Positions 7,114-43,990 of a stretch of DNA of 64,000 bases are shown piece by piece; the stretch's first letter is position 1; every line of letters starts with the position of its first letter. Location of the stretch: NCBI GenBank assembly GCA_964490395.1, contig CAZBAS010000003.1, forward strand, positions 8,636 through 72,635, given 5' to 3'. The position numbers and the translations under genes are program-made. The notes under the pieces are model-generated. The model had not been told where the DNA came from. It ran no database searches and was given only the letters and a program-made list of their open reading frames with translations. This DNA is from an uncultured Candidatus Saccharibacteria bacterium. Its GTDB lineage: Bacteria > Patescibacteriota > Doudnabacteria > UBA920.

Positions 7114-7689
7114 ATGAATACGAAGAAGCTTCTTGTGCTCACTGCCAGCATCGCGCTGCTTGCAGCTGGCTGTTCTAAAGCTAAAACCCCGGCGCAAACT
7201 CCACCTCCAGCAACTGCTCCTGCACCTACCCCTGCGGCTGCTATACAGGAATTTGACCCGGCGCAGGACTGGATTCGGTTTTACCCAGGCGAAACTACTA
7301 AGTTTAATTTGGCTATTGCCAAGACCTGGACAGGTGATGACGATGCAACCGATACTCACTTTGTACTAAGGTCACGAGTGGGTGCGGATGGAACTGCTCC
7401 CGATGACATGATTTTTGACTTTACTGTAGCCCCACTCACTGCGGGAACTCTTTCTGAACAAGTATCAGCCAATATAAAAAGTGCAAAAAGTTCAGGCCCC
7501 GTTGTGGTGAGCAAAACGGATACAGGTGCGCAATATGCATTTGCTCCAATTATTGATTCCGCAGGAAAGTCTGCGCTCGTCTTTGCTGTGCAATACCCTG
7601 GAACTCAATACATAAAAGTGAAAGTCACTGGTAACATTACGCATCCGTATATTGGTCGAGTGATGCAGAGTATTGTCCTAATGAAGTAG
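7114..7689 (+). CDS. Putative lipoprotein
   Basis: Signal peptide with the lipobox LLAAGC, followed by a Pro/Ala-rich linker. Confidence 0.5.
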   Translation: MNTKKLLVLTASIALLAAGCSKAKTPAQTPPPATAPAPTPAAAIQEFDPAQDWIRFYPGETTKFNLAIAKTWTGDDDATDTHFVLRSRVGADGTAPDDMIFDFTVAPLTAGTLSEQVSANIKSAKSSGPVVVSKTDTGAQYAFAPIIDSAGKSALVFAVQYPGTQYIKVKVTGNITHPYIGRVMQSIVLMK

Positions 7690-7690
7690 G

Positions 7691-10201
7691 ATGAAAGGAA
7701 ATTACATGGGATATATGAATAATGAACAAGGCTTTGGGCAACGAGGCCAGAGTCGGATAAGAAAAACGCATCGTGCTTTACAGGTGGATTTAAGTCGGGC
7801 CAAGCTTTTTATGGTTACCTTGGCACTGAGTCTTATATTTGGCTTACTTCCTTTGAGTGTAGTTAAGCCGCAAGGTGCTTCAGTTAGTATGCTTGGTGAA
7901 AAGACAGCTCAGGCTGATATGCTCTCGGTGCTTAGAAACTCATTTAATGGCTATACAACGAGTCAAAATCCCGGTGCGAAGCCAGCGGCAGCCACTCCCA
8001 CTAATCCAGAACAAATAGCTGCTACAGCTGCTGCGAATCATACTTTTGTGTGTCCCGATGGGCAAGTAGAAAGCGGCCGTGTTGAACGCGAAGGTGCTAT
8101 TCGCTGCGTTCCTTGTCCAACAGGGACTGTGCGCATGTTTGTAGGCGGCGGCGAAGCATGTCATCCTCCAGGGTTCAAAGTTGATTACAGCTATATCCCA
8201 GCTGGGTATGAAGTTGGGGCCAATGGTCAGATTTGTCGCTCCGATGGGCAATCTTATGCAGGATCCTTTAACCGAAGATACAAGTCCACTCAACCAAACT
8301 TTGGTGAGTGCTGTAATGGTGGGTTCCGTGACACTAAACCGGTAGTGGCCGGTAGCAGCGTGGCCCTGTTCATTTGTGGTGGAAATAATCCCGCCCAAAG
8401 CTCTACTGGCGGCAGCGCAGGTTCTGGCCAGGGAGCAACTGGCGGCAGCGGCCAAGGGGGTTCGGGAACAGCTACGGGTACGCCAGCTCCGCATACTTTT
8501 GTGTGTCCCGATGGGCAAGTAGAAAGCGGCCGTGTTGAACGCGAAGGCGCTATTCGTTGCGTGCCGTGTCCTACAGGAACAGTTCGCATGTACGTTGGTG
8601 GCGGAGAATCCTGCCATCCACCAGGATACACTGTAGATTACAGTTTCATTCCTGCTGGATATGAGATTGGCGCTAACGGCCAGATATGTCGCTCCGATGG
8701 CCAGTCATACGCTGGTTCATTCAATCGACGGTATAGATCCACTCAGGCGAATATGGGTGAATGTTGTAACGGCGGCTATCGTGACAGTAAACCTGTTGTT
8801 GCCGGAAGTAGTGTGGCATTGTTTATTTGTGGGGTTCCTACTGCAGCGCAGGCTGCGGCTGCTGGGGCGGTAGTTCCAAAGCCTTCAACACCCACCGGAA
8901 ATAATGGCCAAGGTTCTTCTGCAACCAATACGAGCGGCTCGTCTTCGTCGTCTGGTACTGGCTCGTCTACAGGTCAGTCAACAGGGGGCACGACAACTAC
9001 TGGTGGTCAAAACGGTCTTACGGGTTCTGCGACTACTGTTGGTTCGCTCGATACTGCTTCTATTTCTCAGTTTAAAGGATGGGCGTTCGACCAGGATAGT
9101 ACTTCTGCGGTTGTTGGCGTTACCTTTTATGCAGATGCTACCCTTGAAAAAGGTGGAACACCCCTTGCGGGATCTGTAAAAACCACGACGCAGCGTGATG
9201 ATGTGAACAGTACGTATGGTATTAGTGGTGCTCATGGTTTTACGGCCACCGTATTTTTGGCCACTGCTACAACTGCGTCGAACAACGCAGCAGGTACCAT
9301 AACCATTCCATTGACCATGCAGGATGGTAAAGAGCATTTGGTGTATGCATATGCCGCAGATGCTACTGGAGCAAAGAATGTTTTAGCGGGAAGTCCTAAA
9401 TCGGTTTCTTTTGGGAGCGCCAATTGTACGACTACGACAACGGGCACTGGTACAAGCGGTAGAACTACCCCTGGCCAAGTGGTGGTAGGTAGTCCTGGCG
9501 GCGTTGGATCTGGTGGTTCAGGCGGTTGTTCCGGGTCAACGGGTAGTGGCGGCGCAGGTGGGTCGAGCAGACACAATTACCTTACCCCTTGTGATGGGGC
9601 AGGTATAGCAGGCAAGGACGATCCAGCTATCGTGGTAGAAGTCAAAGCCGATGGCACCATAGTGGGAAGTGTGGATACTAAGAATGTAAGCGACGCGGTG
9701 GTTAAGATAAATGGGACAACCACTACCAGTAAAACCTTTACCCTCAAAGCAGGTGATAGTATCTCGGTTACTACTAAGAACGGTACGTATTCTGCCGATG
9801 CGGATGGCCTTGCAAAAGGTGAGAATGCTTCCATCCTCGTTCCTATGCCTTGTATTCGAATAGGGTATGACGATGTGCTTGGTGGTCAGCAGTGCGGCGA
9901 CGGCCAAGATGGTACCTGTGCCGATGAGCTTGATGCGTTTATAAACGTAGAAAGCATTCAAAATGCGGGCATAAAAGATAGCGATTTTGAAATATGGTAC
10001 AAGGTCAAAGGTGGTAAGTACGATACTGGCGGTTGGAAAAAATATGACTGGAAGAACTGCGGCCAGTATAGTAACCATTGTATTCGCTTGGCAGGTGCAG
10101 GTGTGATTTATGCCAAAACCAAGATAATTGCTGGCACACTTCCTGGAAGCTGGAGCCTCACTGCTCAAAAAGAATTTGATGTTGCAAAAGGCAAGTTCTA
10201 A
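7691..10201 (+). CDS. Large secreted Cys-rich surface protein with a duplicated module and a GWAFD-type domain
   Basis: 836 aa with an N-terminal TM/signal sequence. It has two near-identical Cys-rich modules of about 115 aa (HTFVCPDGQVESGRVEREGAIRCVPCPTGTV...ECCNGG...LFICG), Gly/Ser/Thr linkers, and a domain GWAFDQDS...RDDVNSTYGISGAHGF that is shared with the ORF at 48964. Confidence 0.6.
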   Translation: MKGNYMGYMNNEQGFGQRGQSRIRKTHRALQVDLSRAKLFMVTLALSLIFGLLPLSVVKPQGASVSMLGEKTAQADMLSVLRNSFNGYTTSQNPGAKPAAATPTNPEQIAATAAANHTFVCPDGQVESGRVEREGAIRCVPCPTGTVRMFVGGGEACHPPGFKVDYSYIPAGYEVGANGQICRSDGQSYAGSFNRRYKSTQPNFGECCNGGFRDTKPVVAGSSVALFICGGNNPAQSSTGGSAGSGQGATGGSGQGGSGTATGTPAPHTFVCPDGQVESGRVEREGAIRCVPCPTGTVRMYVGGGESCHPPGYTVDYSFIPAGYEIGANGQICRSDGQSYAGSFNRRYRSTQANMGECCNGGYRDSKPVVAGSSVALFICGVPTAAQAAAAGAVVPKPSTPTGNNGQGSSATNTSGSSSSSGTGSSTGQSTGGTTTTGGQNGLTGSATTVGSLDTASISQFKGWAFDQDSTSAVVGVTFYADATLEKGGTPLAGSVKTTTQRDDVNSTYGISGAHGFTATVFLATATTASNNAAGTITIPLTMQDGKEHLVYAYAADATGAKNVLAGSPKSVSFGSANCTTTTTGTGTSGRTTPGQVVVGSPGGVGSGGSGGCSGSTGSGGAGGSSRHNYLTPCDGAGIAGKDDPAIVVEVKADGTIVGSVDTKNVSDAVVKINGTTTTSKTFTLKAGDSISVTTKNGTYSADADGLAKGENASILVPMPCIRIGYDDVLGGQQCGDGQDGTCADELDAFINVESIQNAGIKDSDFEIWYKVKGGKYDTGGWKKYDWKNCGQYSNHCIRLAGAGVIYAKTKIIAGTLPGSWSLTAQKEFDVAKGKF
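8039..8838 (+). repeat. Intragenic tandem duplication: two units of about 345 bp (8039-8385 and 8492-8838) with high nucleotide identity
   Basis: catacttttgtgtgtcccgatgggcaagtagaaagcggccgtgttgaacgcgaagg... occurs twice with only scattered substitutions. Confidence 0.8.
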
Positions 10202-10213
10202 TACACGAGCATA

Positions 10214-10243
10214 TAAAAAACCACAGAAATCTGTGGTTTTTTA
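10214..10243 (+). terminator. Rho-independent terminator after the 7691..10201 gene
   Basis: aaaaaaccacagaaatctgtggtttttt: a 6-bp stem, a 4-nt loop and a T6 run. Confidence 0.6.
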
Positions 10244-10336
10244 TATGTGCTTTTTATGTGGCATGTACGTTATTCTTCTGTGCTGGTAAATACCACCTGG
10301 TAATTATTATTTTTTTGTTCATTTATGGTATACTAA

Positions 10337-12055
10337 TTGCAAAGGTTAATAATCTATCTTTTGAAACAAATGAAAATCGCGAATCAACAAAAGTTAATTA
10401 TAGGCGTTGCCGCTTTGGCAATAGTCGCGCTTATTACTACTACCATTTGGAGCCGTCCCGGGTTTTTGTACCAACCCCCAACTGCAGCCCAGCGCCAAAT
10501 TGCCCAAGACAAACAAAAGCAAGAGTTGGAAGAGTATCGCAAGTACTTAGCAGATATTCAAGCTGATCCCGGCGCTAGTCAAGCAGTAATTAGCAAAACA
10601 ATAGATTCAAAAGTGCTATCTGCGCAAGTAAAGGCCGACCTGGGTGCGGCCAAGCCCCCATTGACCCCTCACGTGGATGCTTCCCGTTTTGCAGTAAGTG
10701 CTGATACGAGCCGTACCGCAATAGACACTTACTTGAATGGGGTAAAGCCATTACTTGAGAAAATAAGTGAGTTGCCCGCAGATTCTTTGAATTCCGCACT
10801 CGGTGCTGAGCCAGACCCAATCGCGGCTCGTTCTTTACAGGGCGTTTCTAGTAATGCAATTTCTGATCTGTATAATATGACTGTGCCTAAACCAGCCGTG
10901 GAGCTGCACACATCTATTATTGCTGCACTTTCCGTACATGGTCAGTTTATTAACGACGCCGTAAGTACATCGTCTTCTGTTGCCCCGCGTGGTGCTGCGC
11001 GGTGGAGTAACACGTATCCGACATACGCAGCAGCTCAAATGCAGCTTGCAAATGTTAATACTGCAGTTCAGGCGCTGGGTCACCAGTATGGCCTTTTGGG
11101 GGATGGTGAAAAAACCGCACAGAATGGATTTATAAAAACTGCAAATGCGCAGGTGCCCGTTTCGGTAATAACCAATATCCCTCAATGGCTTGAGCTTGCT
11201 ATCCGGCAGGCAGTGAGTACGGTGATTTTAAACTACATACGGAACCAAGTGCTTACTTGGGCCCTTCGGTTTGATAAAGATCATACCATTGCCAACTTCT
11301 TGTACTATGGCAATGCTCTTACCACTAAGAACACTGAAGATTATTTAAAGAAATACGCAACCGAGGAGCAGGGCTTTGATAATGTAGATAGGGATATGAT
11401 TAAAAATCTCATCCCTCAGTTTAATTGCGGTAGGTTAGACGAAGAAGCGTTTAAAAAAGATGTACGGGCTAAAGTTCTAACGTACTTAGGTTTTAATCCT
11501 TCCGCACTTTCCGCAACTGACATAAGTGATCCTGATTATTATACGAAACTATCGAAGACTGCCACGCTCAGGGGCGACCCAACTGGACAAGGGTATGCCC
11601 TATGGGCCCAAAGCCTAGCAGCTGTGACCCAGGGCGAAAGTGAGAAAAGCGGTATTCTAGAACAGTTGTCCTCAGGTAAAAAAGCCGGGTATTCTGCTCA
11701 GGGGACTCAGAAAATTGTAGAATCTGTGGATCTGGTAAGCGGTAAGATTACTTCCGCCATAAATGCCATGTTTAATATTGGTCCAACAACAGCTGCCACT
11801 GGTTTAACTGGTGCGGTGGCGGGCATTTTGACTTCGGTTTTGCAACAGCTTGTGGTTCAGGGGACTGTAACGTTGAGCGAGCAAACAAAATGTATAAAAA
11901 CCGCAGTATATAATCCCATTATTCCCGGTGATTTTACACCGAGCGGGGGTGATGTAAATGTTTCGCAAATTACTCAGTGTGTTTCAAATCCGGATACGTG
12001 TAGAGATTTGCTTTTCGCCAATCCGAACGGCTCAGTTGGTGTGAGAAAGCCGTAG
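10337..12055 (+). CDS. Hypothetical membrane-anchored protein
   Basis: 572 aa with an N-terminal TM helix (IIGVAALAIVALITTTIW). No recognisable catalytic motif. It lies in the T4SS-like locus. Confidence 0.45.
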   Translation: MQRLIIYLLKQMKIANQQKLIIGVAALAIVALITTTIWSRPGFLYQPPTAAQRQIAQDKQKQELEEYRKYLADIQADPGASQAVISKTIDSKVLSAQVKADLGAAKPPLTPHVDASRFAVSADTSRTAIDTYLNGVKPLLEKISELPADSLNSALGAEPDPIAARSLQGVSSNAISDLYNMTVPKPAVELHTSIIAALSVHGQFINDAVSTSSSVAPRGAARWSNTYPTYAAAQMQLANVNTAVQALGHQYGLLGDGEKTAQNGFIKTANAQVPVSVITNIPQWLELAIRQAVSTVILNYIRNQVLTWALRFDKDHTIANFLYYGNALTTKNTEDYLKKYATEEQGFDNVDRDMIKNLIPQFNCGRLDEEAFKKDVRAKVLTYLGFNPSALSATDISDPDYYTKLSKTATLRGDPTGQGYALWAQSLAAVTQGESEKSGILEQLSSGKKAGYSAQGTQKIVESVDLVSGKITSAINAMFNIGPTTAATGLTGAVAGILTSVLQQLVVQGTVTLSEQTKCIKTAVYNPIIPGDFTPSGGDVNVSQITQCVSNPDTCRDLLFANPNGSVGVRKP

Positions 12056-12111
12056 GTCGTAGGCGAGTTAGGTTCGTTTGCCTCGTGCAGCTGTGCTGAG
12101 TTAGTAAACTA

Positions 12112-15100
12112 TTGAATGATTTTAGTTTCACCATGAAAGCGTCTATACCTTCACGTATAAAAATAATAGTATTTCGACTGGCAGTATTCGCGCTTTTGGC
12201 CGGTGTTGTTGCGCCTGCCTATGCACAAGTGAGCCCACGGGGTATTGTCACTGGGACTCCCCCTGGCCGAGTATTACAGGCTCAACAAACCTCAAACTGC
12301 TTTGTCCCCACGTTAAAAGTAACACCCTCAGAAGTAGACAAGAGTGGGAGTTTGAAGTTTGAGGTTAATGTAAAAAACACCTGTACCACGAAGCAAACCG
12401 CATACGTAAAAGTTCTTTATAACGACACCCTATTGCTGCGCAATGTAACTCCGGGCGGCGCTTTTGGGACTCCGCCGGCAGAGCTTTCCGGGGGGGCTTC
12501 CAAAGATTTTGCTTTCGATGTTGCCGTGGGGGGTATCCAGGGCCTTACCAAAACTACTAATTTTCATGCCCAGGTTACCATGTCGAGGTCGCCGGATGCG
12601 AAAAGCGAGCCCGTTCCGGTGGTTATGAAATTTATAACCGACGAGAACCCGGTCGGTAGTGCGAACTGTTTGTTGTTGAACTTGATAGTCGCGCCTACGG
12701 TTATTAAAGCACAAAGTGAGACATTAGCTTTTGGATTAAAGTTAAATAATAATTGCACGGGGGGTATCGGGCCCCAGCTGGCCGTTCTGTATAACAAAGA
12801 TCAGCCCATAAATCCTATCGCCAACCCCCCATGGCTTGCTCCTGGTGCCTCTGACCAAGTAAACTTTTCCTGGGGCGCCGGGGGGCTACAGGGTTTGACT
12901 GGTACTACTAATTTTTATGCTGTTGCAAAATATACAGACCCGGCTAGTAAGAAGGAAGTTTCAGTACGCAGTAATGTAGTAGCGGTCTCAATGGAATTTA
13001 GTGGCGTAACTCCGGGCGATGGCGGCGCCGGGACTGGAGAGGGCGCTACATTACCTCCTGGTGCGCAAACCCCTACGGCCGGTGGCGCTACCAGCTGTAT
13101 TAGCATTACCAGTGGGCCAATTTGCGTCATCAACTATGTTATTGCCGCCGTGGTGCAGGTATTTAACTCGATAGTTAAGTATGTTTTGCTCAGGTTTTTG
13201 GGGCCATTTATTGAAGCGCTTGTTTCCATTCGGACTTATACTGATGATTTTGCGCAGGTTATATATAGTGCCTGGCAGATACTGCGCAACCTTGGAAATA
13301 TTTTCTTTATTTTGTCCATTGTGGCAATTGGTGTGGCAACGGTTTTCCGCATATCGGGATACGCTGTTAAGGATTTGCTGGTAAAGCTTATTGTTGGTGC
13401 TATACTCATAAACTTTAGTTTAACTATTGCCCAGGCTATATTAGGCATTGCAGATACGGTTACCAATCAATTCTTAGGACCAAATACGGGAGCAATACGC
13501 GCTATTGTGAATCCGTTGGTTACTACGAATATATGGGCGAATGTAACTGCGAACGCTGGTGATTTTTCATCGTCTATTCAGGGTGTATTTAGTTTCTGGC
13601 TCAGCTTTGCCGCCTTTGTCGCATTCTTGGGTGTAGCATTTTTGTTGTTCTTCCGCATTATAATGCTCTGGATACTGCTCATGCTGTCCCCATTGCCTTA
13701 TGTAGCTATGGTCTTGCCCGCTACGCGCAAGATGTCTAAGACCTGGTGGAGCAAGTTCATACAGTGGGCATTTAACGCGCCTATAGTGGCGTTCATGCTG
13801 AACCTTACTGCTACTATTACTGTTGCAAATAGTAATATCATCCAAAAACTGGCGAACGTCCAAACTGGTAATAGCAGTGAAGTGACTACATTTATGTTCG
13901 CAGTGGCAGGGCAAGCAATTCCTATAGCCTTTTTGTTCATGACCGTGAAAGCCGGTGCTTCTGTGGGTAAGGGTGCTGCTGGATTTATAGATAAAGCCAT
14001 AGACAAGGGTGCTAAAGCGGCCTTCCTGCCAGCGGCGCTTACAGGTGCGGCAGTTGGCGGCGCTGTTGGCGCGGGTGCTGCTGCGGTTGCTAAAACTGCA
14101 AAGAATGCCGCTGCTGTTCCCCTTGATTTGGCAAAGCTTAAATTCGCAGAGGGCCGGGCGTCACGATTAAATGATATCGCAAATGACAAGGCAACTACAG
14201 GAACTAAAATAAAAAGCTTTTTGGCGGGAGATAGAAGTATTGGAAAGATGCTGGAGGCTAAGCGTAAGCGCTACGAGGGTGATACTAAACACTATAAAGG
14301 GGCAAGCGAAGAGTATCTGAAAGATATAGAAAAGAATCGGTATAGCTGGGCAGGGGCAAAAGTTTTGGGAAATAAAATAAAAACCAAGGGCTCTAACCTC
14401 GCGGCGAAGCTTCAAGGTGCTGATACTGTACAAGATCTTGCTAGGTTGAAGACAGACCAAGAGCTCCAGCAAAACCTGAAAGATGCCAAATATACCGGAT
14501 CCTTGACCGATACAGATGCTATGAAACAGCAAATTGAGTTAGCTAAAGAAGCACTGAAAGATCCGAAAATTTCTGATGACGCAAAGAAAGATAAAGAGAA
14601 GCTCATTAAGACTCTTGATGACACTGTTCGAAACATGGAAATCCGTGCTAATAACAACGAGCTCTCCAAAGCTGCAAGTGTCGGTGCTAATGAGTTGAAT
14701 AAGGTTATCCACGAGCTTAGGGAACCCGCCCAGACACAATTGGCCAAGTCAGAGTACGCACCTTCCTACATTGCCGATAAACACCGCCGCGAGAATACTA
14801 AAGGTGCTGCGTCGCGCCTTCCAAGTGAATACAGTCTTGGTGAGTACGCAGATTTCTTCAAGAAGGCTGTTGCTAAGGGCGACAAATATGGTGCTTTACT
14901 TGCGGCGCAGACCATAGAGCAAGAAGGCGACACCAAAGACATGCTTAAGCAATTTGGGTATACAAATAACTCTGATGGGCTTAAGAAGTTTTATAAAGAC
15001 TATTTCCGCAATGGTACTAAAGGTTTTGATGTAGGTGCGGAGACTTATACGACTTTGCTTCGGGAGAGTGATAAACGAACTAAGTCAGCAGGAGACTGGG

Positions 15101-15873
15101 ACTTGGCTGGTAAGATTAAGTACGATACTGGTAGTGGTAAATATGAAGAAGACGGTGCTGGTCGTATTGGAAAGAACGTAGATAAGCGCATAGGAGAAGG
15201 GTCTATTAATGATATATGGCGTGGTATGACAACGAAAACTGCCATGACGTATAACATAGATGCCGAAAGCGGTGAAGGGAAGTGGGGTTTGAGTGATCAC
15301 ATGATTGAGGCTCTTAAGAAGATGAACCCGGGGGATCCGATGTCTATGCAGGCATTGACTCGAACAAATAGTCCTATGGCTCGTAACATAACTACTTTAA
15401 ATGGGAGCCTTAAAGATGATCCGAAGGCGTTAAAAGAGATTGAAATTCAGTTTAAGGACGCGATTAAGGAAGCCTCAAAAGCACGAGGAAGAACAGAGCA
15501 GCAGCAAACAGAAGATGCTGATAAAGCATATATGATGGTCAAGTACGCAAGCAATGATATGACTGCTGCTGAAGCTTCGGTAATTAAGGACGTTGTAACC
15601 CAAGTAAATGATGAGGCAGCTATCCTCAGTGGTCGTCGTCCAAAGCAGAAAAATAAAGATAAAGACAATAACCAAGCTAATAGCAATAATCAGAATAATA
15701 ATCAGCCCCAAGCAGGCCAGGCGCAAAACAATCAGGGCAATAATTCTGGACAAAACAATCAACGGCGTCAAAACCGTCCCAGAGGTGGAAATGGCCAGCA
15801 GGGTGGCGGGCAGCAGCCTCCTACAAATACGCCACCTTCCTCTACTGGGCCCAAGCTTAAGCTGAAGCAGTAA
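12112..15873 (+). CDS. VirB6/TrbL-like polytopic membrane protein with N-terminal repeated extracellular domains and a long charged, Q/N-rich C-terminal tail
   Basis: 1253 aa. A signal peptide is followed by two domains of about 100 aa that each end in GG(L/I)QGLT(G/K)TTNF(Y/H)A. A block of at least six TM helices (roughly 13100-14000) resembles TrbL/VirB6. A K/D/E-rich predicted coiled coil follows, and the tail is N/Q-rich (NNQANSNNQNNNQPQAGQAQNNQGNN...). Confidence 0.5.
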   Translation: MNDFSFTMKASIPSRIKIIVFRLAVFALLAGVVAPAYAQVSPRGIVTGTPPGRVLQAQQTSNCFVPTLKVTPSEVDKSGSLKFEVNVKNTCTTKQTAYVKVLYNDTLLLRNVTPGGAFGTPPAELSGGASKDFAFDVAVGGIQGLTKTTNFHAQVTMSRSPDAKSEPVPVVMKFITDENPVGSANCLLLNLIVAPTVIKAQSETLAFGLKLNNNCTGGIGPQLAVLYNKDQPINPIANPPWLAPGASDQVNFSWGAGGLQGLTGTTNFYAVAKYTDPASKKEVSVRSNVVAVSMEFSGVTPGDGGAGTGEGATLPPGAQTPTAGGATSCISITSGPICVINYVIAAVVQVFNSIVKYVLLRFLGPFIEALVSIRTYTDDFAQVIYSAWQILRNLGNIFFILSIVAIGVATVFRISGYAVKDLLVKLIVGAILINFSLTIAQAILGIADTVTNQFLGPNTGAIRAIVNPLVTTNIWANVTANAGDFSSSIQGVFSFWLSFAAFVAFLGVAFLLFFRIIMLWILLMLSPLPYVAMVLPATRKMSKTWWSKFIQWAFNAPIVAFMLNLTATITVANSNIIQKLANVQTGNSSEVTTFMFAVAGQAIPIAFLFMTVKAGASVGKGAAGFIDKAIDKGAKAAFLPAALTGAAVGGAVGAGAAAVAKTAKNAAAVPLDLAKLKFAEGRASRLNDIANDKATTGTKIKSFLAGDRSIGKMLEAKRKRYEGDTKHYKGASEEYLKDIEKNRYSWAGAKVLGNKIKTKGSNLAAKLQGADTVQDLARLKTDQELQQNLKDAKYTGSLTDTDAMKQQIELAKEALKDPKISDDAKKDKEKLIKTLDDTVRNMEIRANNNELSKAASVGANELNKVIHELREPAQTQLAKSEYAPSYIADKHRRENTKGAASRLPSEYSLGEYADFFKKAVAKGDKYGALLAAQTIEQEGDTKDMLKQFGYTNNSDGLKKFYKDYFRNGTKGFDVGAETYTTLLRESDKRTKSAGDWDLAGKIKYDTGSGKYEEDGAGRIGKNVDKRIGEGSINDIWRGMTTKTAMTYNIDAESGEGKWGLSDHMIEALKKMNPGDPMSMQALTRTNSPMARNITTLNGSLKDDPKALKEIEIQFKDAIKEASKARGRTEQQQTEDADKAYMMVKYASNDMTAAEASVIKDVVTQVNDEAAILSGRRPKQKNKDKDNNQANSNNQNNNQPQAGQAQNNQGNNSGQNNQRRQNRPRGGNGQQGGGQQPPTNTPPSSTGPKLKLKQ

Positions 15874-15894
15874 AGTCTTTATATCTAAAATAGT

Positions 15895-17130
15895 ATGGAA
15901 GAGTCTGAAGTACAACAAATAGCCGAAGAAGCAGATGAGGCCATTGCGGCCTTAGACGTTGCTGCTGCCCGAAATCTACTCAAACAGCTGGACGGTTTTG
16001 GTGTAACCCCAGAACAGGGTGATGCTGCCGGGGTATTGTATAGAGACTTGCTTTTCGTGAGGCTACCACAGCTTGCTGCTCCACAATCGACTTGGCTTTT
16101 GCAACATTGTGTACTTGCTGGTCTTATGTTGCCAGATTTTGATTTATCTGCCCGTATAGTCGATGCTATGTCGATTGTGTTTGATGAAGACGAGCGGGTA
16201 GCGTTGGTAGCTAGGTTTGTGGAAGCAATAGAGCAGGGAACTGAGTTACTCGGCACGAGTAACTTAACTATAGAAGGTGCTGAGTTTCCTCCCACTGTTC
16301 AGTCTTGGATAAAAGATTACAAATTATGGCCCGCACCTTCCCCAGAGCGCAAGGGGTTAGACGAGCTTAATTATGCTAATCAAAGCCCAAACGCCAAGAA
16401 GCTTGACCAGGTTTCACGAAATTCCCTCTTGGGTGTACTTGGTTTGTACGATACGCTTCACAATAGTATTGTTGCTTACAACAATCTTCCGGAAATATAC
16501 GTGGAAGACCATCCGCGCGCAAATTTATCTGCCCTTGCTGCAAGTCCAGACGAATTTGATTCCTTAAAAGCAGCTGATGACGCGTATGTACAAGCAGCGA
16601 AAAGTATTGTGCAAAGTGATAGTATCGCCTATGCGTCTTCGCCAGTAGCGCCACAGAGGGGGTCAGTTGCGCCGGACAGCTTTAGTCCATCCCCAAACAT
16701 ACAGGGCGTGTTGGTGCAAACCCCGTTGGGTGTTTCAGAGAATAGTGGGCTCGACATGGTTGCTCCGACTATTGCTGACGAAGATGATCATGTGCCGACT
16801 TCGAGCATGTCCGTAACGCAACGCAATGATGGTTCAGTCTCTCAAGGTGCTCCTACTATATCTGATGGGTCATTGCCTGTCGCGGCATATGAGGCGCCAG
16901 AAGACTTGTCTCATTCTGCCTCCATTCCAGCGCAGGGTCCTATACGAACAGGTGTGCGACCAGTGCCGTTGGCCACTGCGCCGGTTTCCAAGCTTGTTTC
17001 GCCTATTAAGCTTGCAAAGCCTGTACCGAGTATGGATGAGCTAAAACATGAGGCAGAAGCCAGGCGGGATTCTGTTCAGGCAGACATAGATAGTAAGCTC
17101 AATAGCTTAAAAAAGAAAGCGGGCGAGTAG
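15895..17130 (+). CDS. Hypothetical acidic protein in the T4SS-like locus
   Basis: 411 aa, strongly acidic with a Ser/Pro/Val-rich C-terminus. No known motif. Confidence 0.4.
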   Translation: MEESEVQQIAEEADEAIAALDVAAARNLLKQLDGFGVTPEQGDAAGVLYRDLLFVRLPQLAAPQSTWLLQHCVLAGLMLPDFDLSARIVDAMSIVFDEDERVALVARFVEAIEQGTELLGTSNLTIEGAEFPPTVQSWIKDYKLWPAPSPERKGLDELNYANQSPNAKKLDQVSRNSLLGVLGLYDTLHNSIVAYNNLPEIYVEDHPRANLSALAASPDEFDSLKAADDAYVQAAKSIVQSDSIAYASSPVAPQRGSVAPDSFSPSPNIQGVLVQTPLGVSENSGLDMVAPTIADEDDHVPTSSMSVTQRNDGSVSQGAPTISDGSLPVAAYEAPEDLSHSASIPAQGPIRTGVRPVPLATAPVSKLVSPIKLAKPVPSMDELKHEAEARRDSVQADIDSKLNSLKKKAGE

Positions 17131-17176
17131 CACTGCGCTTCACTATACTGCACTGAAGATCTATAAAAACAAAGCT

Positions 17177-18166
17177 ATGGTAAATCAATCACAATTAGAA
17201 ACAGTGCGAGAGCTTGTACGTACTTCAAAAAATCTCTCAGACGCAGAGCGTACTGAGTGGCTGGGTTTGCTTGGCTTCATGAACGATAAGCAGCTCTCAG
17301 ATTTATCTGCTATTTTGCAGTCGGCTTCGCCGACCCCAGAACCGCCCAAGGTAATCATACCGGTGAAAGTTATTGCTCCTGAGCAAATAGCAGCACCTGC
17401 AGCAGAGCTGGACCTTCCAGCACCTACGCCTACAAGTCGACCCGCTATACCACCCATTGCAACTCCCCCTCCTGGGGCGAATACTGTTTCAGCTTTCATC
17501 AATCGCAATTTTGCTACAGAGCTTCATCGCACTCCTGTTCCGCCATCTATTCCAGAAGAATCAGCGAAAAAAAACATTTCTACAACACCTGTCCCAGCCC
17601 CGCCTGAATTGATCGTTCCTACACCTCCGGCAAGGTCCGTGAATATGTCGGACATTGCTGCTAAGGCGCCAGCTGCGCCAGCGGCAGAGCCTTTGGCGGC
17701 GCCAAGTGTGAACATTCCTCCAAAGCCAATTGCTGCAACCTTGGCACCAGAACCTGCGGCAATTAGCCTGCCTCAGCGCGCACCCGAGATTGTAACTCCA
17801 CCGACTCCAGAACCTTCAGAAGAAAATGATGCTCTTCCACAAGTAGATGAAGAAGTAGTGGCGCCCCCTAAAAATTTAGAAGATGTACGACGGTTAAATG
17901 TGGCAACGCTCCGGGGTAGGGGTGTGCTTGGCATAGAAACAGAACTTAAAACCTTGTGTCAGAAGTTTGGCTATTTTTCAGTACAATTTGCGCTTGAGCA
18001 CTCGCCGCTCTATCAAACCTATTTAGCAGTAGGTAGTCGTGTGCTCCAGCAGCACCAATCGTTTGAAGGTGTACAGGCTGAGCTTGCTGCAGGAAATAGA
18101 CCATATTTAACTAAGCCTGAATTTGAAGAAATAAATGATTTATTACAGCGCATAAAAAGCGGGTAA
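17177..18166 (+). CDS. Hypothetical Pro/Ala-rich protein in the T4SS-like locus
   Basis: 329 aa with PAPxP-type low-complexity sequence in the middle and a structured C-terminus. Confidence 0.4.
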   Translation: MVNQSQLETVRELVRTSKNLSDAERTEWLGLLGFMNDKQLSDLSAILQSASPTPEPPKVIIPVKVIAPEQIAAPAAELDLPAPTPTSRPAIPPIATPPPGANTVSAFINRNFATELHRTPVPPSIPEESAKKNISTTPVPAPPELIVPTPPARSVNMSDIAAKAPAAPAAEPLAAPSVNIPPKPIAATLAPEPAAISLPQRAPEIVTPPTPEPSEENDALPQVDEEVVAPPKNLEDVRRLNVATLRGRGVLGIETELKTLCQKFGYFSVQFALEHSPLYQTYLAVGSRVLQQHQSFEGVQAELAAGNRPYLTKPEFEEINDLLQRIKSG

Positions 18167-18180
18167 TATGGTATAATTAG

Positions 18181-18265
18181 TACAGTTCGTAAAGTTCATA
18201 AAGTAGAAAGTTCATAAAGTATGACTTTACAAACTTTAAGAACTTTATAAACTTTCAACGTATTC
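18181..18265 (+). promoter_or_regulatory. Second copy of the conserved element (AAAGTTCATAAAGT)x2 ... ACTTTACAAACTTTAAGAACTTT, upstream of the virB3-like gene
   Basis: gtaaagttcataaagtagaaagttcataaagtatgactttacaaactttaagaactttataaacttt matches 6001-6083 closely. Confidence 0.6.
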
Positions 18266-18709
18266 ATGCAGTTTCCCGTTCCACAATTCACCGAAGTAGA
18301 GGATAAAATTATAGGCCCTTTAACTGTTAAGCAGTTTTTTATTTTGCTGCTGACTGGGGGCATTATATTTTTTGCGTATTCTCTCTCTAAAGACTATTAC
18401 GTAACTGGTGCTGCTGGCGTATTGGTTGGCATACCGGGACTTGCCGTGACTTTTGGTCAATTCAATGGAAGGCCTATGTATGTCTCGGTATTCGTTTTTC
18501 TGAATTACTGGACCAGGCCTAAATTTTTTATTTTTCATAAAGAAGCAGAGGGTCATACCACCACTACAGTGAAAAACTTGCAACCAGCGCCAGAGCCCCC
18601 TAAAAAAACAGAACCAGGTGATGACCCTCGTAGTAGACTGCATAGAATTCAGTATCAATTAGAGCAGCGTGCAAGCCAAGAAGCAGAACTGTTGCAGCAG
18701 CGGAAGTGA
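18266..18709 (+). CDS. Small two-TM membrane protein, VirB3/PrgI-like (inferred from position)
   Basis: 147 aa with two adjacent hydrophobic helices. It lies immediately upstream of the VirB4 ORFs, which is the usual VirB3 position. Confidence 0.35.
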   Translation: MQFPVPQFTEVEDKIIGPLTVKQFFILLLTGGIIFFAYSLSKDYYVTGAAGVLVGIPGLAVTFGQFNGRPMYVSVFVFLNYWTRPKFFIFHKEAEGHTTTTVKNLQPAPEPPKKTEPGDDPRSRLHRIQYQLEQRASQEAELLQQRK

Positions 18710-18786
18710 GAATTGTGAATTAAGAATGGCATGATATATTTCTCTCTTAATTCATACTTCATAATTCATAATTCTAGACTTTAGTT

Positions 18787-19494
18787 ATGGCCCTAGAAAT
18801 GCAAAAACCAAATCAGGCAAAAGGAGTATCTACCAACAATGCATTGCGAATTGCAGAAATACGCGATGATATTGTTATTATGCAGGACGGCACGCTACGA
18901 GCAGTCTTGGCCATCTCTTCTACAAACTTCGACTTAAAAAGTGAAGAAGAGCAGAATGGCATTGTCTATGGCTACCAACGCTTTCTCAATTCACTAGATT
19001 TTCCTGTGCAAATTCTCATGCAGAGCAGAAGGTTGGATATTGCAGATTATGTTGGCCGCCTTAAGGTGACTACGAGCCACCTAACCAATGAACTGCTGAA
19101 AATGCAGGCGAGCTATTACATGGACTACATAGCAGAGTTGGTAGCCAGTGCAAATGTAATGAGTAAGAATTTTTACATAGTTGTACCTTTATCTCAAAGT
19201 GTGACCCCTGCTGCGGGCGGGTTTCTTTCCAAAATTTTTGGCGGTGGCGTGGCAAAACAGACAACGCAAAAACTTGATAACTTAAAACATTACTCTGAAC
19301 AGCTCCAGCAGCGCATAGACTCCGTTATGGGCAACTTGTCTGGGGTGGGGCTGCGCATTGTCCGGCTCGATACGGGTGCGCTCATTGAACTTTACTATAA
19401 CTCTTATAACTTTGAGTCGGCGCCTACACTTGATAGCAGTACCCTTGGTGATATAAAAGTAATAAATGCTCCCGGGAGTCCGACGGCCAGTTAA
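18787..19494 (+). CDS. VirB4/TrbE-like ATPase, N-terminal domain fragment (split gene)
   Basis: 235 aa. The motif IVIMQDGTLRAVLAISSTNFDLKSEEEQNGIVYGYQRFLNSLDFPVQIL matches the conserved VirB4 N-terminal region (DG.L.A...G.D....E.E). It ends 35 nt before the ATPase ORF, which starts in a different frame. Confidence 0.5.
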   Translation: MALEMQKPNQAKGVSTNNALRIAEIRDDIVIMQDGTLRAVLAISSTNFDLKSEEEQNGIVYGYQRFLNSLDFPVQILMQSRRLDIADYVGRLKVTTSHLTNELLKMQASYYMDYIAELVASANVMSKNFYIVVPLSQSVTPAAGGFLSKIFGGGVAKQTTQKLDNLKHYSEQLQQRIDSVMGNLSGVGLRIVRLDTGALIELYYNSYNFESAPTLDSSTLGDIKVINAPGSPTAS

Positions 19495-19529
19495 TGCGCC
19501 CTATTTTTTGAAATTGTCTTTACATAGCC

Positions 19530-21380
19530 ATGAGTTTATTCGCAACCAGAACACCCGAGCAAATTGCTCAAGAAAAAGAAAAATTGCAATCTGCAAAATC
19601 TGCGTCCCAGGTTAACAAGCAGGTTGCTGAGCTGGAAAAAATATACCAAGAAGGTGTAACGTCTTTAAAAGATTTACTTTCACCTACGGCGCTTAAGTAC
19701 GAAAGCTCCTATTTTTTGCTGAACGGTAAATACGGTCGCAGTTTTTTTGTGCTTGCGTACCCTCGGTTTCTTTCTACGAACTGGCTTTCGTTTATTATCA
19801 ATTCTGAGGGTGAACTGGACGTATCCATGTTCATTTACCCAATTGATTCCGCAACTATACTGAAAAAGCTCAAGTCTAAAGTTGGTGAAATTGGTTCACA
19901 GCTTAGCATAAACCAAGAAAAAGGAGTTGTGCGAGATCCAATGCTTGAGACGGCGTACCAGGATGTAGAGGGTCTGCGCGACTCGCTCTTACAGGGAACA
20001 GAAAAGTATTTTCGTTTTGCTCTCTATTTCACTATATATGCCGATAACGTCAAAGATTTGGACGAAGCTTCTACGGTGCTGGAGAGTGAGCTCGGAGCAA
20101 AGCTTGTGGTAACAAAACGCGCGCTTATGCAGACTGAGCAAGGGTTCATTTCCACCCTACCCTATGGTCTGGATGAAATGAATATAGGTAACAATCTAAA
20201 TACAAGTCCACTTTCTACAACCTTTCCGTTTGTATCACCCGACCTTACGAGCAATGATGGTATTTTGTATGGTATAAACCGGCACAACAACAGTCTTATT
20301 TTGTTCGACCGGTTTAAGATGGAAAATGCGAATTTTGTGGTATTCGCGAAGTCTGGTGCTGGGAAGTCGTATACGATAAAACTTGAAATTCTGCGTAGCC
20401 TCATGGTTGGTACTGAGGTCTTGGTTATTGATCCAGAAAATGAATACCAACATTTGGCCGAAGCCGTTGGCGGAAGCTTTATAAACATATCCTTGAACTC
20501 TCAGTCCCGTATAAACCCATTTGACCTGCCGCGCGGATTGGAAGGGGAGAGCCAAGAGGACATTATGCGTAGCGCCGTTATTTTTCTGCTCGGTCTCATG
20601 AACCTGATGCTGGGCCAGCTCGATCCGACTGAAGAGGCAATTATGGATAAGGCTATATGGCAAACCTATGCCAAGAAAGATATAACCGTCCAAAGTGATT
20701 TAACCAATGTAGAATTTCCTACCATGGGCGACCTTGTAGAGGTTCTGCAAGGCATGGTGGGCGCAGAGAATTTGTCGCAAAGACTTTCTAAATACACCCA
20801 AGGTACCTTTTCGGGAATATTCGACCAGCAAAGTAACGTTGGCTTGGTCAATAGTTTAGTAGTATTTTCTATTCGCGACCTGGAAGATATACTTCGCCCT
20901 ATTGCCATGTTCGTGCTGGTGAACCATATTTGGAACTTGGTGCGCAGTGAGCTTAAGCGACGCATCTTGGTGCTTGATGAAGCGTGGGTTATGATGCAGC
21001 ATGAAGATAGCGCCCGGTTTATTTTTGGAATTGCAAAACGATGTCGTAAGTATTATTTGGGGCTCACTACCATTACTCAGGACGTAGCTGACTTTATGGC
21101 ATCGCCTTATGGTAAGCCAATTGTAACGAACTCATCTATCCAGCTGCTCTTAAAACAGAGTCCTGCATCTATAAACATAGTCGCAGAAACTTTTTTCTTG
21201 ACCGAAGGCGAAAAATATTTACTCCTTGAAAGCGAAGTTGGGCAAGGGATATTTTTTGCAGGCACGAAACACGCTGCTATTGAGGTTCATGCTTCCTACA
21301 TAGAAGACCAAATTATTACGACCGATCCAAAGCAGCTCATGGAAATAAAAGAACAACAGGCCGCTGCTCCGGCTGTGTAG
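19530..21380 (+). CDS. VirB4/TraC/TrbE-like conjugation/T4SS ATPase (C-terminal RecA-like domain)
   Basis: 616 aa. Walker A FAKSGAGKSYT and Walker B VLDEAWVMM (the DEAW motif is typical of VirB4). Confidence 0.7.
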   Translation: MSLFATRTPEQIAQEKEKLQSAKSASQVNKQVAELEKIYQEGVTSLKDLLSPTALKYESSYFLLNGKYGRSFFVLAYPRFLSTNWLSFIINSEGELDVSMFIYPIDSATILKKLKSKVGEIGSQLSINQEKGVVRDPMLETAYQDVEGLRDSLLQGTEKYFRFALYFTIYADNVKDLDEASTVLESELGAKLVVTKRALMQTEQGFISTLPYGLDEMNIGNNLNTSPLSTTFPFVSPDLTSNDGILYGINRHNNSLILFDRFKMENANFVVFAKSGAGKSYTIKLEILRSLMVGTEVLVIDPENEYQHLAEAVGGSFINISLNSQSRINPFDLPRGLEGESQEDIMRSAVIFLLGLMNLMLGQLDPTEEAIMDKAIWQTYAKKDITVQSDLTNVEFPTMGDLVEVLQGMVGAENLSQRLSKYTQGTFSGIFDQQSNVGLVNSLVVFSIRDLEDILRPIAMFVLVNHIWNLVRSELKRRILVLDEAWVMMQHEDSARFIFGIAKRCRKYYLGLTTITQDVADFMASPYGKPIVTNSSIQLLLKQSPASINIVAETFFLTEGEKYLLLESEVGQGIFFAGTKHAAIEVHASYIEDQIITTDPKQLMEIKEQQAAAPAV

Positions 21381-21424
21381 AGTATGCAGAAGGTGTAATG
21401 TTCATGTTAATTTAGACCATTGCT

Positions 21425-22723
21425 ATGTCCACAGGCGTTGGTATACCTCAAACTAGTAGTAACCCGAATACAAATGCCCAGCTGCAAAAAGCCGCAGCGT
21501 GGGCTTTTGCTATTGACCAAGGTAGGCAGGCGAGAAGCAAAGAAGATGCGCTGTTGCTCGCGCGCATGTACGAAGCAGCGGCAGCAGTACATGCTACTGA
21601 ACTGACCTACGATGCGCTGCAGCGCGTTATAGATGAAGAAAAACAACGGCGTGCAGCCGGGGTTGTGCTTATTGCCCAAAGCAATCCGTTTAGAGATGTC
21701 CCCAATATTGCCGAGGCGCACCGTGGTGCATATAACCAGGCGAAACCCGAAGAAAAAAGCCAAGTACGCAATAGACTAACTCCAGAGAAGCAGGAAGCGC
21801 TGACTGAACTTGAAGATGAAACAGAAAACGATGATGAAAACAGTGCGCCAGTAGACGAAGTCCCAGCAGCTAAACCTATTCCTGCACCATTTCCCGGAGC
21901 AAGTCCCCAAGAGTCAGAAGCAGATGAAGATGGGCAGGCAGCAGAGGGCCCTGACGCTGCTGAGCAGGCGCAATCCGAGGAACCCGAGACTGATCTTCCT
22001 GGTATTGACGCGCCTTTTCCTGGTGGCTTTTTCGCTGCGGGGGGCGGGGGCGATAGTCCAGCAGAGAAGAAACCAGGTGGTCCCCAGATGTGGTTTGATA
22101 AAATAGGCGCAAATGTGGCCCATAATATAAAGGGCCAAAAAGTTATGTTGTATGGGCAGCGTGCAGAAGCCCTTGGACGTGCGGGCCGCATTGCCAGTCG
22201 GGCCATGCGCAAGCGTGGCGGTCCAGCGCAGTTTGGTAACGCAAAGAAATTAGAAAATTTAGCTCGGAGCACTCAAAAAGTGGGAAAGGCTCTCCAAAAA
22301 GGAGGCAAATACCTTGCTGCTGCTCAGGCCGTTAAGGAGTTTGCATCGGGAGACCTTAAGAAAAGTGTTGCCACGGCGGTCCGTACTGGTGGTAGCATTC
22401 TTATAACCCAGCTGGCATTTTGGGTGTCGGGCCTGTTCGGCCTTACGATAAAAGGCTTGGTTGTTACCGCTGTTGTGTGGAATATTATTTTAATTGCGAG
22501 CAAGCTCTTTAAGCTGAGCATTCCGAGCTGGATGAAGTGGTCTATTATCGCGTTTGATATTGCCTTGCCAATGCTTTTGGTGCTTATTGTAATAGCTTTA
22601 TTTGTTGTTTCTTGTTATATATCTCATGGAAATTTTATCACCGACCTATTGTCTGGGTTCGTAGGACTATTCTCGAGTGTGGTCGGAGGCTTTAATCAAT
22701 TTTGTACCGGCCTTGGCATTTAA
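21425..22723 (+). CDS. Hypothetical protein with an acidic low-complexity centre and a C-terminal multi-TM region
   Basis: 432 aa. The D/E/A-rich middle is followed by three or four TM helices at the C-terminus. No known motif. Confidence 0.4.
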   Translation: MSTGVGIPQTSSNPNTNAQLQKAAAWAFAIDQGRQARSKEDALLLARMYEAAAAVHATELTYDALQRVIDEEKQRRAAGVVLIAQSNPFRDVPNIAEAHRGAYNQAKPEEKSQVRNRLTPEKQEALTELEDETENDDENSAPVDEVPAAKPIPAPFPGASPQESEADEDGQAAEGPDAAEQAQSEEPETDLPGIDAPFPGGFFAAGGGGDSPAEKKPGGPQMWFDKIGANVAHNIKGQKVMLYGQRAEALGRAGRIASRAMRKRGGPAQFGNAKKLENLARSTQKVGKALQKGGKYLAAAQAVKEFASGDLKKSVATAVRTGGSILITQLAFWVSGLFGLTIKGLVVTAVVWNIILIASKLFKLSIPSWMKWSIIAFDIALPMLLVLIVIALFVVSCYISHGNFITDLLSGFVGLFSSVVGGFNQFCTGLGI

Positions 22724-22908
22724 TTATTTTATATTTTTTGGTCTAATTGTGGTATACTATAAGCACGTTTTGGACGTTTGAAACAGAACTGTACCCAGTT
22801 GAAATTCTCCAGATTCTCCACCGTTGGTATACGAATCTCAACCTGGGTATGTAAAAATTTTATCTGAATGCATTACACGTATTGTGATGCGAAGAAATTC
22901 TACTGGGT

Positions 22909-29641: not shown

Positions 29642-29730
29642 TGGCGGAGAGGGGGGGATTCGAACCCCCGAGGCTTTTTACACCTGACGGTTTTCAAGAC
29701 CGTTGCACTAAACCACTATGCGACCTCTCC
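29642..29730 (-). tRNA. tRNA-Ser (anticodon TGA)
   Basis: The reverse complement is GGAGAGGTCGCATAGTGGTTTAGTGCAACGGTCTTGAAAACCGTC...CGGGGGTTCGAATCCCCCCCTCTCCGCCA, with a long variable arm and anticodon loop CTTGAAA. Confidence 0.85.
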
Positions 29731-29991: not shown

Positions 29992-30002
29992 ATATTAGTT
30001 TT

Positions 30003-30068
30003 TCCGCCCGAGGCGGACCCGCCTTGGGCGGGCAAGACCACCGCACTAGACCACTATGCGACCTCTCC
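30003..30068 (-). pseudogene. Truncated tRNA-Ser 5' half (about 37 nt, through the anticodon stem) fused to the GC-rich double-hairpin repeat
   Basis: The reverse complement is GGAGAGGTCGCATAGTGGTCTAGTGCGGTGGTCTTG followed by CCCGCCCAAGGCGGGTCCGCCTCGGGCGG. It matches tRNA-Ser(TGA) only up to the anticodon loop. Confidence 0.6.
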
Positions 30069-33134: not shown

Positions 33135-33224
<90 letters not shown>

Positions 33225-33225
33225 G

Positions 33226-43966: not shown

Positions 43967-43990
43967 GCTTTTTTTGTTTAAGGAGGACAT

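Follow-up and report, generated by a model that had tools for sequence, protein, structure and literature searches.

The type IV secretion systems (T4SSs) most like the one described here are those of the Patescibacteria, or candidate phyla radiation (CPR). In Southlakia the T4SS is essential, is closest to the T4SSs that serve conjugation in Gram-positive bacteria and has no recognisable coupling protein or relaxase (Wang 2023; PMC10633639). Among 3,035 Patescibacteria genomes, VirB4 was found in 2,417 (~80%) as a monophyletic clade nested in the mating-pair-formation type MPF-FATA; TrsD, PrgI, VirB6 and proteins resembling VirB2 were widespread and relaxases rare, ksgA was a common neighbour and, in class ABY1, so were recG, radA and comF, and a genome of class Doudnabacteria is listed as VirB4-positive in the supplementary table (Quinonero-Coronel 2025; PMC12102498). 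Near-universal, and essential in the one species tested, the T4SS has a role which is a major open question in Patescibacteria biology. Here we describe a T4SS locus within a 64,000-nucleotide stretch of contig CAZBAS010000003.1, positions 8,636 to 72,635; this whole stretch is referred to as the window, and coordinates are counted from its first letter.

The locus is very probably an intact, chromosomal and vertically inherited Patescibacteria T4SS, derived from the MPF-FATA type and carried in a Doudnabacteria-like genome, a confidence which applies to the identity of the system only. The system itself is already published, and this locus is a further example in one more lineage. An original prediction, made from the letters of the sequence, had placed a T4SS-like locus at 7114-22723 and had read it as a chromosomal, non-conjugative system of the kind found in episymbiotic CPR lineages. 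The components, the synteny and the literature (PMC10633639; PMC12102498) support that reading.

Core components of the locus

The core of the machine is encoded by the following genes.

12112-15873, + strand: extended VirB6/TrbL-like polytopic membrane protein, 1253 aa (TrbL matches of its family, and fold)
18266-18709, + strand: PrgI/VirB3-like protein, 147 aa, two transmembrane (TM) segments (PF12666)
18787-19494, + strand: TrsD/TraC-like protein, 235 aa (NCBIfam TrsD; precomputed match to PF26593, TraC-like)
19530-21380, + strand: VirB4 ATPase, 616 aa, of the monoderm MPF-FATA/CD1110 type (P-loop_TraG, NF045971, PDB 4ag5)

VirB4 matched Pfam P-loop_TraG (2e-24) and NCBIfam NF045971, the VirB4-like CD1110 family with CTn2 as prototype (346 bits, cutoff 325), and its sole PDB sequence match was the Thermoanaerobacter VirB4, 4ag5 (7e-45). 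Walker A (AKSGAGKS) and Walker B (ILVLDEAW) motifs are intact and legible in the sequence, so that the VirB4 ATPase named in the original prediction was borne out. The best plasmid matches were CD1110-family VirB4s from Bacillota and Actinomycetota (27-37% identity), which were outscored by far by more than 8000 homologues of Patescibacteria type. The VirB3-like protein with two TM segments, also predicted, was confirmed by a match to Pfam PrgI PF12666 (E 1.7e-7, 32.1 bits, gathering cutoff 27) together with two hydrophobic segments.

The TrsD-like gene between these two had been overlooked. Its product matched NCBIfam TrsD at 2.2e-6, under the NCBIfam full-length cutoff, and positions 99-233 of VirB4_plasma, the VirB4 of mycoplasma integrative conjugative elements (ICEs), at 3e-7. 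Because it covers positions 12-154 of the CD1110 profile (1.3e-4) and VirB4 covers the complementary positions 158-730, the N-terminal domain of VirB4 is a separate gene here. Such a detached domain is the commonest T4SS-associated protein in Patescibacteria (PMC12102498).

The 1253-aa protein comprises a signal peptide, two Ig-like repeats (~aa 60-290), a conserved core of seven TM segments (~aa 305-755) and a charged tail of ~600 aa which ends in a Q/N/G-rich stretch. The two repeats, ~105 aa each, are 35% identical (E 5e-14); the tail is ~31% charged, with weak profile matches to TolA, vimentin and dynactin. Both the N-terminal repeats and the Q/N-rich tail are as first described. TrbL was matched by 18 of the 31 members of the VirB6 family (best 6.9e-8), and four relatives of the 1253-aa protein carry precomputed matches to PF04610 or PF19590. 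An AlphaFold2 (AF2) model of residues 297-700, the membrane core, had a predicted local distance difference test score (pLDDT) of 75.8, and its top Foldseek matches in the PDB were stalk chains of R388 TrwI/VirB6 (8rt9_F, 8rtd_L and 7o3v_F; prob 1.0, E 0.01-0.045, TM-score 0.31/0.42). The predicted VirB6/TrbL-like identity is thus moderately well supported by the relatives and by the modelled fold, although the protein's own TrbL match is sub-threshold. Searched against the PDB, a profile made from the whole VirB6 alignment said nothing about the core: the charged tail dominated it, and its matches were confined to helical proteins of low complexity (TolA, vimentin).

For VirB6, the signal peptide, the seven TM segments and an N-out/C-in topology are suggested by hydropathy and the positive-inside rule, which would place the Ig-like repeats on the outer face and the tail within the cell. 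The core (~aa 305-755) is 77-89% identical to that of the closest relatives, whereas the ectodomain (aa 95-305) and the tail beyond residue 755 could not be aligned with them. Both ends are hypervariable even among relatives whose core is 89% identical, and only the core is conserved.

Synteny, selection and the question of mobility

Window proteins were compared by tblastn with 81 loci, 80 from relatives and one (L001) being the window's own DNA. The related loci come from metagenome-assembled genomes (MAGs) of Doudnabacteria, Moranbacteria and Paceibacteria, and their gene order is constant: UvrD-KsgA-(variable)-VirB6-(411, 329)-PrgI-TrsD-VirB4-(variable membrane/hydrolase gene)-PD40-RadA-RecG, where 411 and 329 denote proteins of those lengths. 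VirB4 was matched in all 81 loci, TrsD in 77, PrgI in 66 (next to TrsD-VirB4), VirB6 in 53, PD40 in 32, RecG in 22 and RadA in 19. The nearest VirB4s, up to 99% identical, lie in MAGs whose informative labels are Candidatus Doudnabacteria; the distant loci, with VirB4 identities of 57-62%, are from Moranbacteria, Paceibacterota and Azambacteria. By its nearest relatives the lineage is Doudnabacteria-like, and not Saccharibacteria/Saccharimonadia. Near-identical Doudnabacteria- or Moranbacteria-type loci (among L002-L081) also occur in many third-party annotation (TPA) MAGs titled 'uncultured Candidatus Saccharibacteria' or 'uncultured Bdellovibrionales', and in one titled 'Acidobacteriaceae'; these titles look like placeholders or binning errors and are unfit for taxonomy.

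On either side the locus is flanked by housekeeping genes (7 kb on one side and 41 kb on the other), including the following.

3760-6000: uvrD/pcrA, upstream flank
6084-6938: ksgA, upstream flank
24310-25641: radA, downstream flank
25632-26495: EEP-family nuclease, downstream flank
26517-28667, - strand: recG, downstream flank
35846-36601: ComFC-like protein

Since the same housekeeping synteny recurs across related loci of several classes, the locus is a vertically inherited chromosomal one and not a conjugative or mobile element. Across the 64 kb, open reading frames (ORFs) 100 aa or longer were scanned with Pfam and gave, as the original prediction had it, no relaxase, type IV coupling protein (T4CP)/VirD4, VirB11 or integrase; no search for oriT was made. 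A heuristic Walker-A screen of ORFs of at least 350 aa found no T4CP-like ATPase within 10 kb of virB4 in the 80 related loci, the screen yielding VirB4, RecG, RadA, UvrD, ClpB, IF-2 and DnaA (the last two identified by eye from their N-terminal sequences).

We consider it very improbable that the locus instead belongs, as its mating-pair-formation module, to a conjugative or integrative element whose relaxase, coupling protein and integrase lie beyond the window. VirB4, VirB3, VirB6 and TrsD do derive from conjugation systems, the view past the window ends spans only a few hundred bases on each side (Logan contigs with the same proteins reach ~0.5-0.8 kb past each end, with nothing informative there), and partial tRNA-Ser duplications occur at 30033-30068 and 33387-33420. 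Yet uvrD and ksgA on one side, and radA and recG on the other, are the neighbours in genomes of several classes, GC content is even over the whole window, no integrase lies within its 64 kb, and only 15 relaxases were found near virB4 in the 3,035 Patescibacteria genomes (PMC12102498). Nor do the tRNA fragments bracket the T4SS: an ICE bounded by tRNA genes was considered and rejected, as the partial repeats are remote from the T4SS, either flanking a small GIY-YIG gene or lying within 160 bp of the tRNA.

The two tRNA loci are observations in their own right. A gene for a 91-aa GIY-YIG nuclease (29716-29991, - strand; Pfam 1e-14) adjoins tRNA-Ser(tga) within 29642-30068 and has on either side a direct copy, 36 nt long, of the tRNA's 5' part (29695-29730 and 30033-30068, 89% identical), and it looks like a small mobile or homing-type insertion. 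A small GIY-YIG-like ORF also directly follows virB4 in one related locus (L007, 11891-12226). A second copy of the final 34 nt of tRNA-Ser(gct) occurs 190 bp downstream (33197-33230 and 33387-33420, 88% identical, within 33135-33420). This pair, which encloses next to nothing, may be an att-like scar.

With respect to selection, VirB4 is 98.5% identical in protein to that of the close relative L002 but only 83% identical in DNA. Synonymous divergence (dS) was saturated and dN/dS ratios were unusable, so that only the nonsynonymous values (dN) were compared.

VirB4: dN 0.013 against L002, 0.076 against L004
PrgI: dN 0.028 against L002, 0.235 against L004
TrsD: dN 0.038 against L002, 0.153 against L004
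RadA: dN 0.076 against L002, 0.219 against L004
RecG: dN 0.149 against L002, 0.310 against L004

The dN of VirB4 is 3-11 times below that of the neighbouring radA and recG, and the ATPase core is therefore under tighter constraint than the adjoining DNA-repair genes. In contrast, the exposed or accessory parts, namely the VirB6 ends, the protein encoded after virB4 and the 572-, 411- and 329-aa proteins described below, turn over fast.

Several components of other T4SSs were not found in the window. No pilin family appeared in Pfam and NCBIfam scans of the window proteins, a heuristic hydropathy screen of ORFs of 50-170 aa for VirB2-like pilins returned only PrgI and an unrelated 157-aa protein, and there is no intergenic room in the T4SS locus for an extra pilin gene. 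A VirB8-like protein was not recognised in the window either, as in most Patescibacteria. In five related Doudnabacteria loci (L009, L011, L012, L016 and L017) an extra gene between the post-virB4 and PD40 genes encodes a protein of ~185 aa which begins with a TM segment, has '...WLV.D..I' conserved at its C-terminal end and has no Pfam match; it is absent from the window, and is a candidate for the missing VirB8-like component.

These absences (VirB8, VirB2, T4CP and relaxase), with a post-virB4 protein that has no hydrolase domain, would fit an ancient conjugative system in decay, of which a remnant is left that no longer functions. We regard this as very improbable, and it is contradicted by the intact ORFs and Walker motifs, by a VirB4 dN far below the values for the adjoining repair genes (0.013 versus 0.076-0.149, with dS saturated) and by the essentiality of the orthologous system in Southlakia (PMC10633639). 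The locus is under strong selection and very probably functional.

Accessory proteins, cell-wall hydrolases and neighbouring genes

ORFs on the + strand are tightly packed from 7114 to 24090, and every one of them is intact. Apart from the core genes, the region and its surroundings hold the following features.

2023-3267, - strand: peptidoglycan hydrolase with two LysM domains and CHAP (Pfam LysM 1.8e-17, CHAP 3.2e-17)
7114-7689, + strand: 191-aa protein with signal peptide and lipobox-like LLAAGC motif, clade-specific
7691-10201, + strand: 836-aa Cys-rich protein (24 Cys), membrane-anchored or secreted, putative T4SS member
10209-10248, + strand: terminator-like hairpin, an 18-bp stem and then a T-run, after the 836-aa gene (from a consensus scan only)
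10337-12055, + strand: 572-aa protein (probably 560 aa, with ATG at 10373), N-terminally anchored and extracytoplasmic, directly upstream of virB6
15895-17130, + strand: 411-aa acidic protein (D+E 14.4%), no TM segment, between virB6 and prgI
17177-18166, + strand: 329-aa Pro-rich protein (14.6% Pro), no TM segment, N- and C-terminal parts conserved
21425-22723, + strand: 432-aa post-virB4 protein whose N-terminal part is acidic and disordered, with ~4 hydrophobic segments and, at the C-terminus, a conserved Cys motif
22909-24090, + strand: PD40/TolB-like beta-propeller, N-terminally anchored (PD40 6.4e-14)

We regard 10337-22723 on the + strand as the T4SS operon proper, the hairpin which precedes it suggesting a start at about 10337. 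The genes at 7114-10201 are regarded as an adjoining unit for secreted proteins, putatively part of the T4SS; the 191-aa and 836-aa genes are probably on a separate transcript from the operon.

The acidic, the Pro-rich and the C-terminal-TM protein are all present as the original prediction described them, at 15895-17130, 17177-18166 and 21425-22723. The 411-aa protein was found in 11 of the 81 loci (the window's own included), all of them Doudnabacteria-type, at 23-36% identity, and even in L002 it is only 36% identical; the 329-aa protein was found in 18 of 81, without exception Doudnabacteria-type. Neither had a match in Pfam, NCBIfam or the PDB. Both are clade-specific insertions between virB6 and prgI, restricted to Doudnabacteria-type loci, and are predicted to be cytoplasmic. 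The 572-aa protein has 13 homologues, none annotated, and is conserved upstream of virB6 in the closest clade only; its AF2 model (pLDDT 65.5) is all helical. An identity as VirB8, VirB5 or a hydrolase was considered for it and rejected, as neither a Foldseek match in the PDB (best E 0.29) nor a PDB or Pfam sequence match was found.

The 432-aa protein has only three matching cluster representatives among 1.84 billion, and no hydrolase domain was found in it. An iterated hidden Markov model (HMM) search of the related loci connects it to every short post-virB4 protein in the clade with VirB4 at least 82% identical, and also reaches one such protein in a locus at 74% (L013). The same iterated search reached the hydrophobic region (aa 229-494) of the post-virB4 protein of L014 (E 9e-9), which ends in Peptidase_M15, and SLT lytic transglycosylase domains occur in the proteins which fill this slot in L025 (2.6e-17) and in L017 (2e-4). 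Because these equivalents carry Peptidase_M15 or SLT, the post-virB4 slot is, as far as domain matches can tell, that of a membrane-anchored VirB1/PrgK-like cell-wall hydrolase. The 432-aa protein would be the membrane module of such a hydrolase from which the enzyme domain has been lost, an equivalent by position and by part of its sequence.

A cell-wall enzyme, the LysM+CHAP protein at 2023-3267, was also passed over in the original prediction. Its gene sits 4 kb upstream on the opposite strand; in 17 Moranbacteria-type loci the gene immediately upstream of virB6, in the same orientation, is a homologue of it. It is a candidate VirB1-like cell-wall hydrolase which may serve the T4SS.

With respect to the upstream unit, the 191-aa protein had no Pfam or NCBIfam match and was found by tblastn in none of the related loci. 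The 836-aa protein contains two Cys-rich repeats of 133 aa which are 81% identical, and was found only in the three closest of the 81 loci. Giant Cys-rich proteins had been predicted around the T4SS genes; the 836-aa protein is indeed there, but is the only one within 7114-22723. Likewise the predicted TolB-like propeller exists as the PD40 gene, which lies at 22909-24090, just past the region to which it had been assigned; it is a conserved downstream neighbour of virB4 (32 of 81 loci) and putatively part of the T4SS.

Residues 461-572 of the 836-aa protein resemble residues 252-347 of a 936-aa Cys-rich protein encoded at 48964-51774 (34%, 9e-14), the common domain being ~110 aa long with a GWAFD...HGF-type motif and no Pfam match. 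Four further Cys-rich proteins, which are paralogues anchored at the N-terminus and contain 16-18 Cys apiece, cluster within 51860-60423 (53405-54703, 54706-55980, 57856-58962 and 58966-60423); they have pairwise E values down to 3.5e-20 and no above-threshold family match. The same stretch encodes a DsbA-like thioredoxin (51860-52729) and gave two weak, sub-threshold cupredoxin-like matches (52790-53338 and 58966-60423). The rest of the window encodes a sigma factor, RsmE, the ComFC-like protein, ClpB/C, RecX, HtpX, LemA, peptidases and Cys-rich secreted protein families. An ORF-poor stretch at 43040-44334 lies in the part of the window with the lowest GC (0.38); an RNA family there was looked for and rejected, as no Rfam match reached its gathering score and a sub-threshold 29-bit match to bglG-cis-reg at 43869-43993 was not credible.

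Mechanism, substrate and comparison with known systems

In solved systems VirB4, VirB3 and VirB6 form the inner-membrane part of the T4SS (R388 structures). By homology, the VirB6-like channel protein, PrgI/VirB3 and VirB4 with its detached TrsD-like N-terminal domain would form the membrane core here, giving an ATP-driven translocon in the single membrane of a monoderm cell. ATP hydrolysis by VirB4 would power assembly of the system and transport through the VirB6/VirB3 translocon at contact with the host cell. The LysM+CHAP enzyme may help passage through the cell wall, with the hydrolase-less 432-aa membrane module organising it, and the variable VirB6 ectodomain and the 572-aa protein would face the host. 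That the T4SS is essential in Southlakia (PMC10633639) points to a role in living in dependence on a host.

DNA export by the system is unlikely, since neither a relaxase nor a coupling protein was found. We lean slightly, and tentatively, towards uptake of host macromolecules, especially nucleic acids, because no relaxase or T4CP lies in cis and because T4SS-like systems without both of these include DNA importers. The leaning also draws on the conserved neighbours, which process incoming DNA (RadA, the ComFC-like protein, RecG, RecX and UvrD), and on nucleotide auxotrophy combined with genetics: these organisms are unable to make nucleotides (PMC12857230; PMC11665869), and in Southlakia comEC is dispensable while the T4SS is essential (PMC12857230).

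Almost as likely is that the system exports effectors or toxins into or onto the host without a coupling protein, like Bordetella Ptl or Brucella VirB. Protein-secreting T4SSs which have no T4CP do exist (PMC12102498; PMC12857230), the role most often speculated on in the literature is the delivery of effectors (PMC11665869), and the fast-evolving 836-aa protein of the upstream unit and the 572-, 411-, 329- and 432-aa proteins of the operon would fit effectors or host-specific adaptors. However, no effector-like domain or secretion signal was identified in Pfam, NCBIfam and PDB comparisons, and the neighbourhood is rich in DNA-processing genes and not in toxin/immunity genes. A role in adhesion or contact only is improbable.

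A more specific form of the uptake reading, which we consider doubtful, is a T4SS with neither pilus nor coupling protein in which the Ig-like ectodomain of VirB6 recognises the host in place of pilins or adhesins, the ~600-aa tail replaces the coupling protein, and nucleic acids are imported. If true, RadA, ComFC, RecG, RecX, UvrD and the EEP nuclease would process imported host nucleic acids, and the locus would be a nucleotide-supply route of these auxotrophs.

Several points weigh against the identity and the uptake proposed here. The placement of VirB4 in the MPF-FATA/Patescibacteria clade is drawn from best hits and the published tree (PMC12102498). Taken alone, the 1253-aa protein scores 18.5-20.6 bits against TrbL PF04610, below the threshold of 25.9, and the fold match of its core is modest (E 0.01, TM-score below 0.5). 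No VirB8-like or VirB2-like protein was found in the window, so that the machine lacks parts when measured against either the Gram-positive or the Saccharibacteria template. Since a VirD4-like gene sits at a distance from virB4 in most Patescibacteria genomes (PMC12102498), a coupling protein may exist outside the visible 64 kb of the contig, which is listed as 192 kb long. Finally, the RadA/RecG/ComF linkage may be an inherited gene order without functional meaning.

The locus adds a well-resolved Doudnabacteria-type example. What it contributes is the constraint on VirB4, PrgI and TrsD, the fast turnover of accessory parts, a post-virB4 hydrolase domain which can be lost and a T4SS with no pilin gene nearby. 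Structural or genetic studies could use these contrasts in choosing between the conserved core and host-specific parts.

Among known systems, the locus resembles the SEML1_0006-0019 cluster of Southlakia epibionticum ML1, which is chromosomal and combines VirB4, TrsD, PrgI/VirB3 and VirB6 without a relaxase or coupling protein in the cluster. It has in common with the Patescibacteria T4SSs the hydrolase slot after virB4 and the neighbours ksgA, recG, radA and comF (PMC10633639; PMC12102498). A comparison of gene order with Saccharibacteria T4SS loci had been proposed in the original prediction; the core is shared, but the locus departs from that template in that the heuristic screen found no VirB2-like pilin array in these 64 kb, the protein encoded after virB4 is without a hydrolase domain, an extra pair of cytoplasmic genes is inserted and VirB6 carries Ig-like repeats.

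The order VirB6...VirB3-TrsD-VirB4-hydrolase slot is also that of monoderm MPF-FATA T4SSs (pGO1 TrsC-TrsD-TrsE, pCF10 PrgH-PrgI-PrgJ-PrgK and CTn2 CD1110), pGO1 and pCF10 being reported to share it (PMC12102498). The present locus differs from these conjugative systems in that it lies outside any mobile element and in that neither a relaxase or T4CP nor a VirB8-like protein or surface adhesin was found; plasmid VirB4s are only 27-37% identical to the VirB4 of the window. Helicobacter ComB and archaeal Ced are alike in having no relaxase or coupling protein, a VirB4-type ATPase and a neighbourhood of recombination and competence genes. However, the score of the VirB4 here is no more than 47.7 bits for CedB (cutoff 700) and 17.7 bits for CedD (cutoff 600), and no ComB-type VirB7-10 components were found here by Pfam and NCBIfam scans.

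The same order, large membrane protein, small protein, TrsD-like protein, VirB4 and peptidoglycan hydrolase, recurs on the 898-kb replicon of Pontibacillus sp. ALD_SL1 (NZ_CP062975.1, 351-361 kb), which is typed as non-mobilizable. There a short CD1110-family VirB4 is followed by a peptidoglycan endopeptidase, and the TrsD-like protein of the window matched the gene upstream of virB4 at 2.5e-29 by phmmer. The Pontibacillus locus differs in that its annotation includes a pilin-like gene (Mbov_0395 family); the two VirB4s are 34% identical, and equivalents of VirB6 and PrgI were undetectable by pairwise search. This T4SS-like cluster (L084) is relaxase-less and adjoins flagellar genes, and may be what corresponds in a Firmicute to the repurposed system of the Patescibacteria.

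The VirB6 of the window can be likened, by description, to the extended VirB6 proteins, a class described in PMC12857230 (Rickettsiales Rvh VirB6 paralogues, F-like TraG and pCW3 TcpH), which also combine a polytopic core with large hydrophilic extensions. Unlike those proteins, the one described here has both an Ig-like N-terminal ectodomain and a C-terminal tail of ~600 aa.

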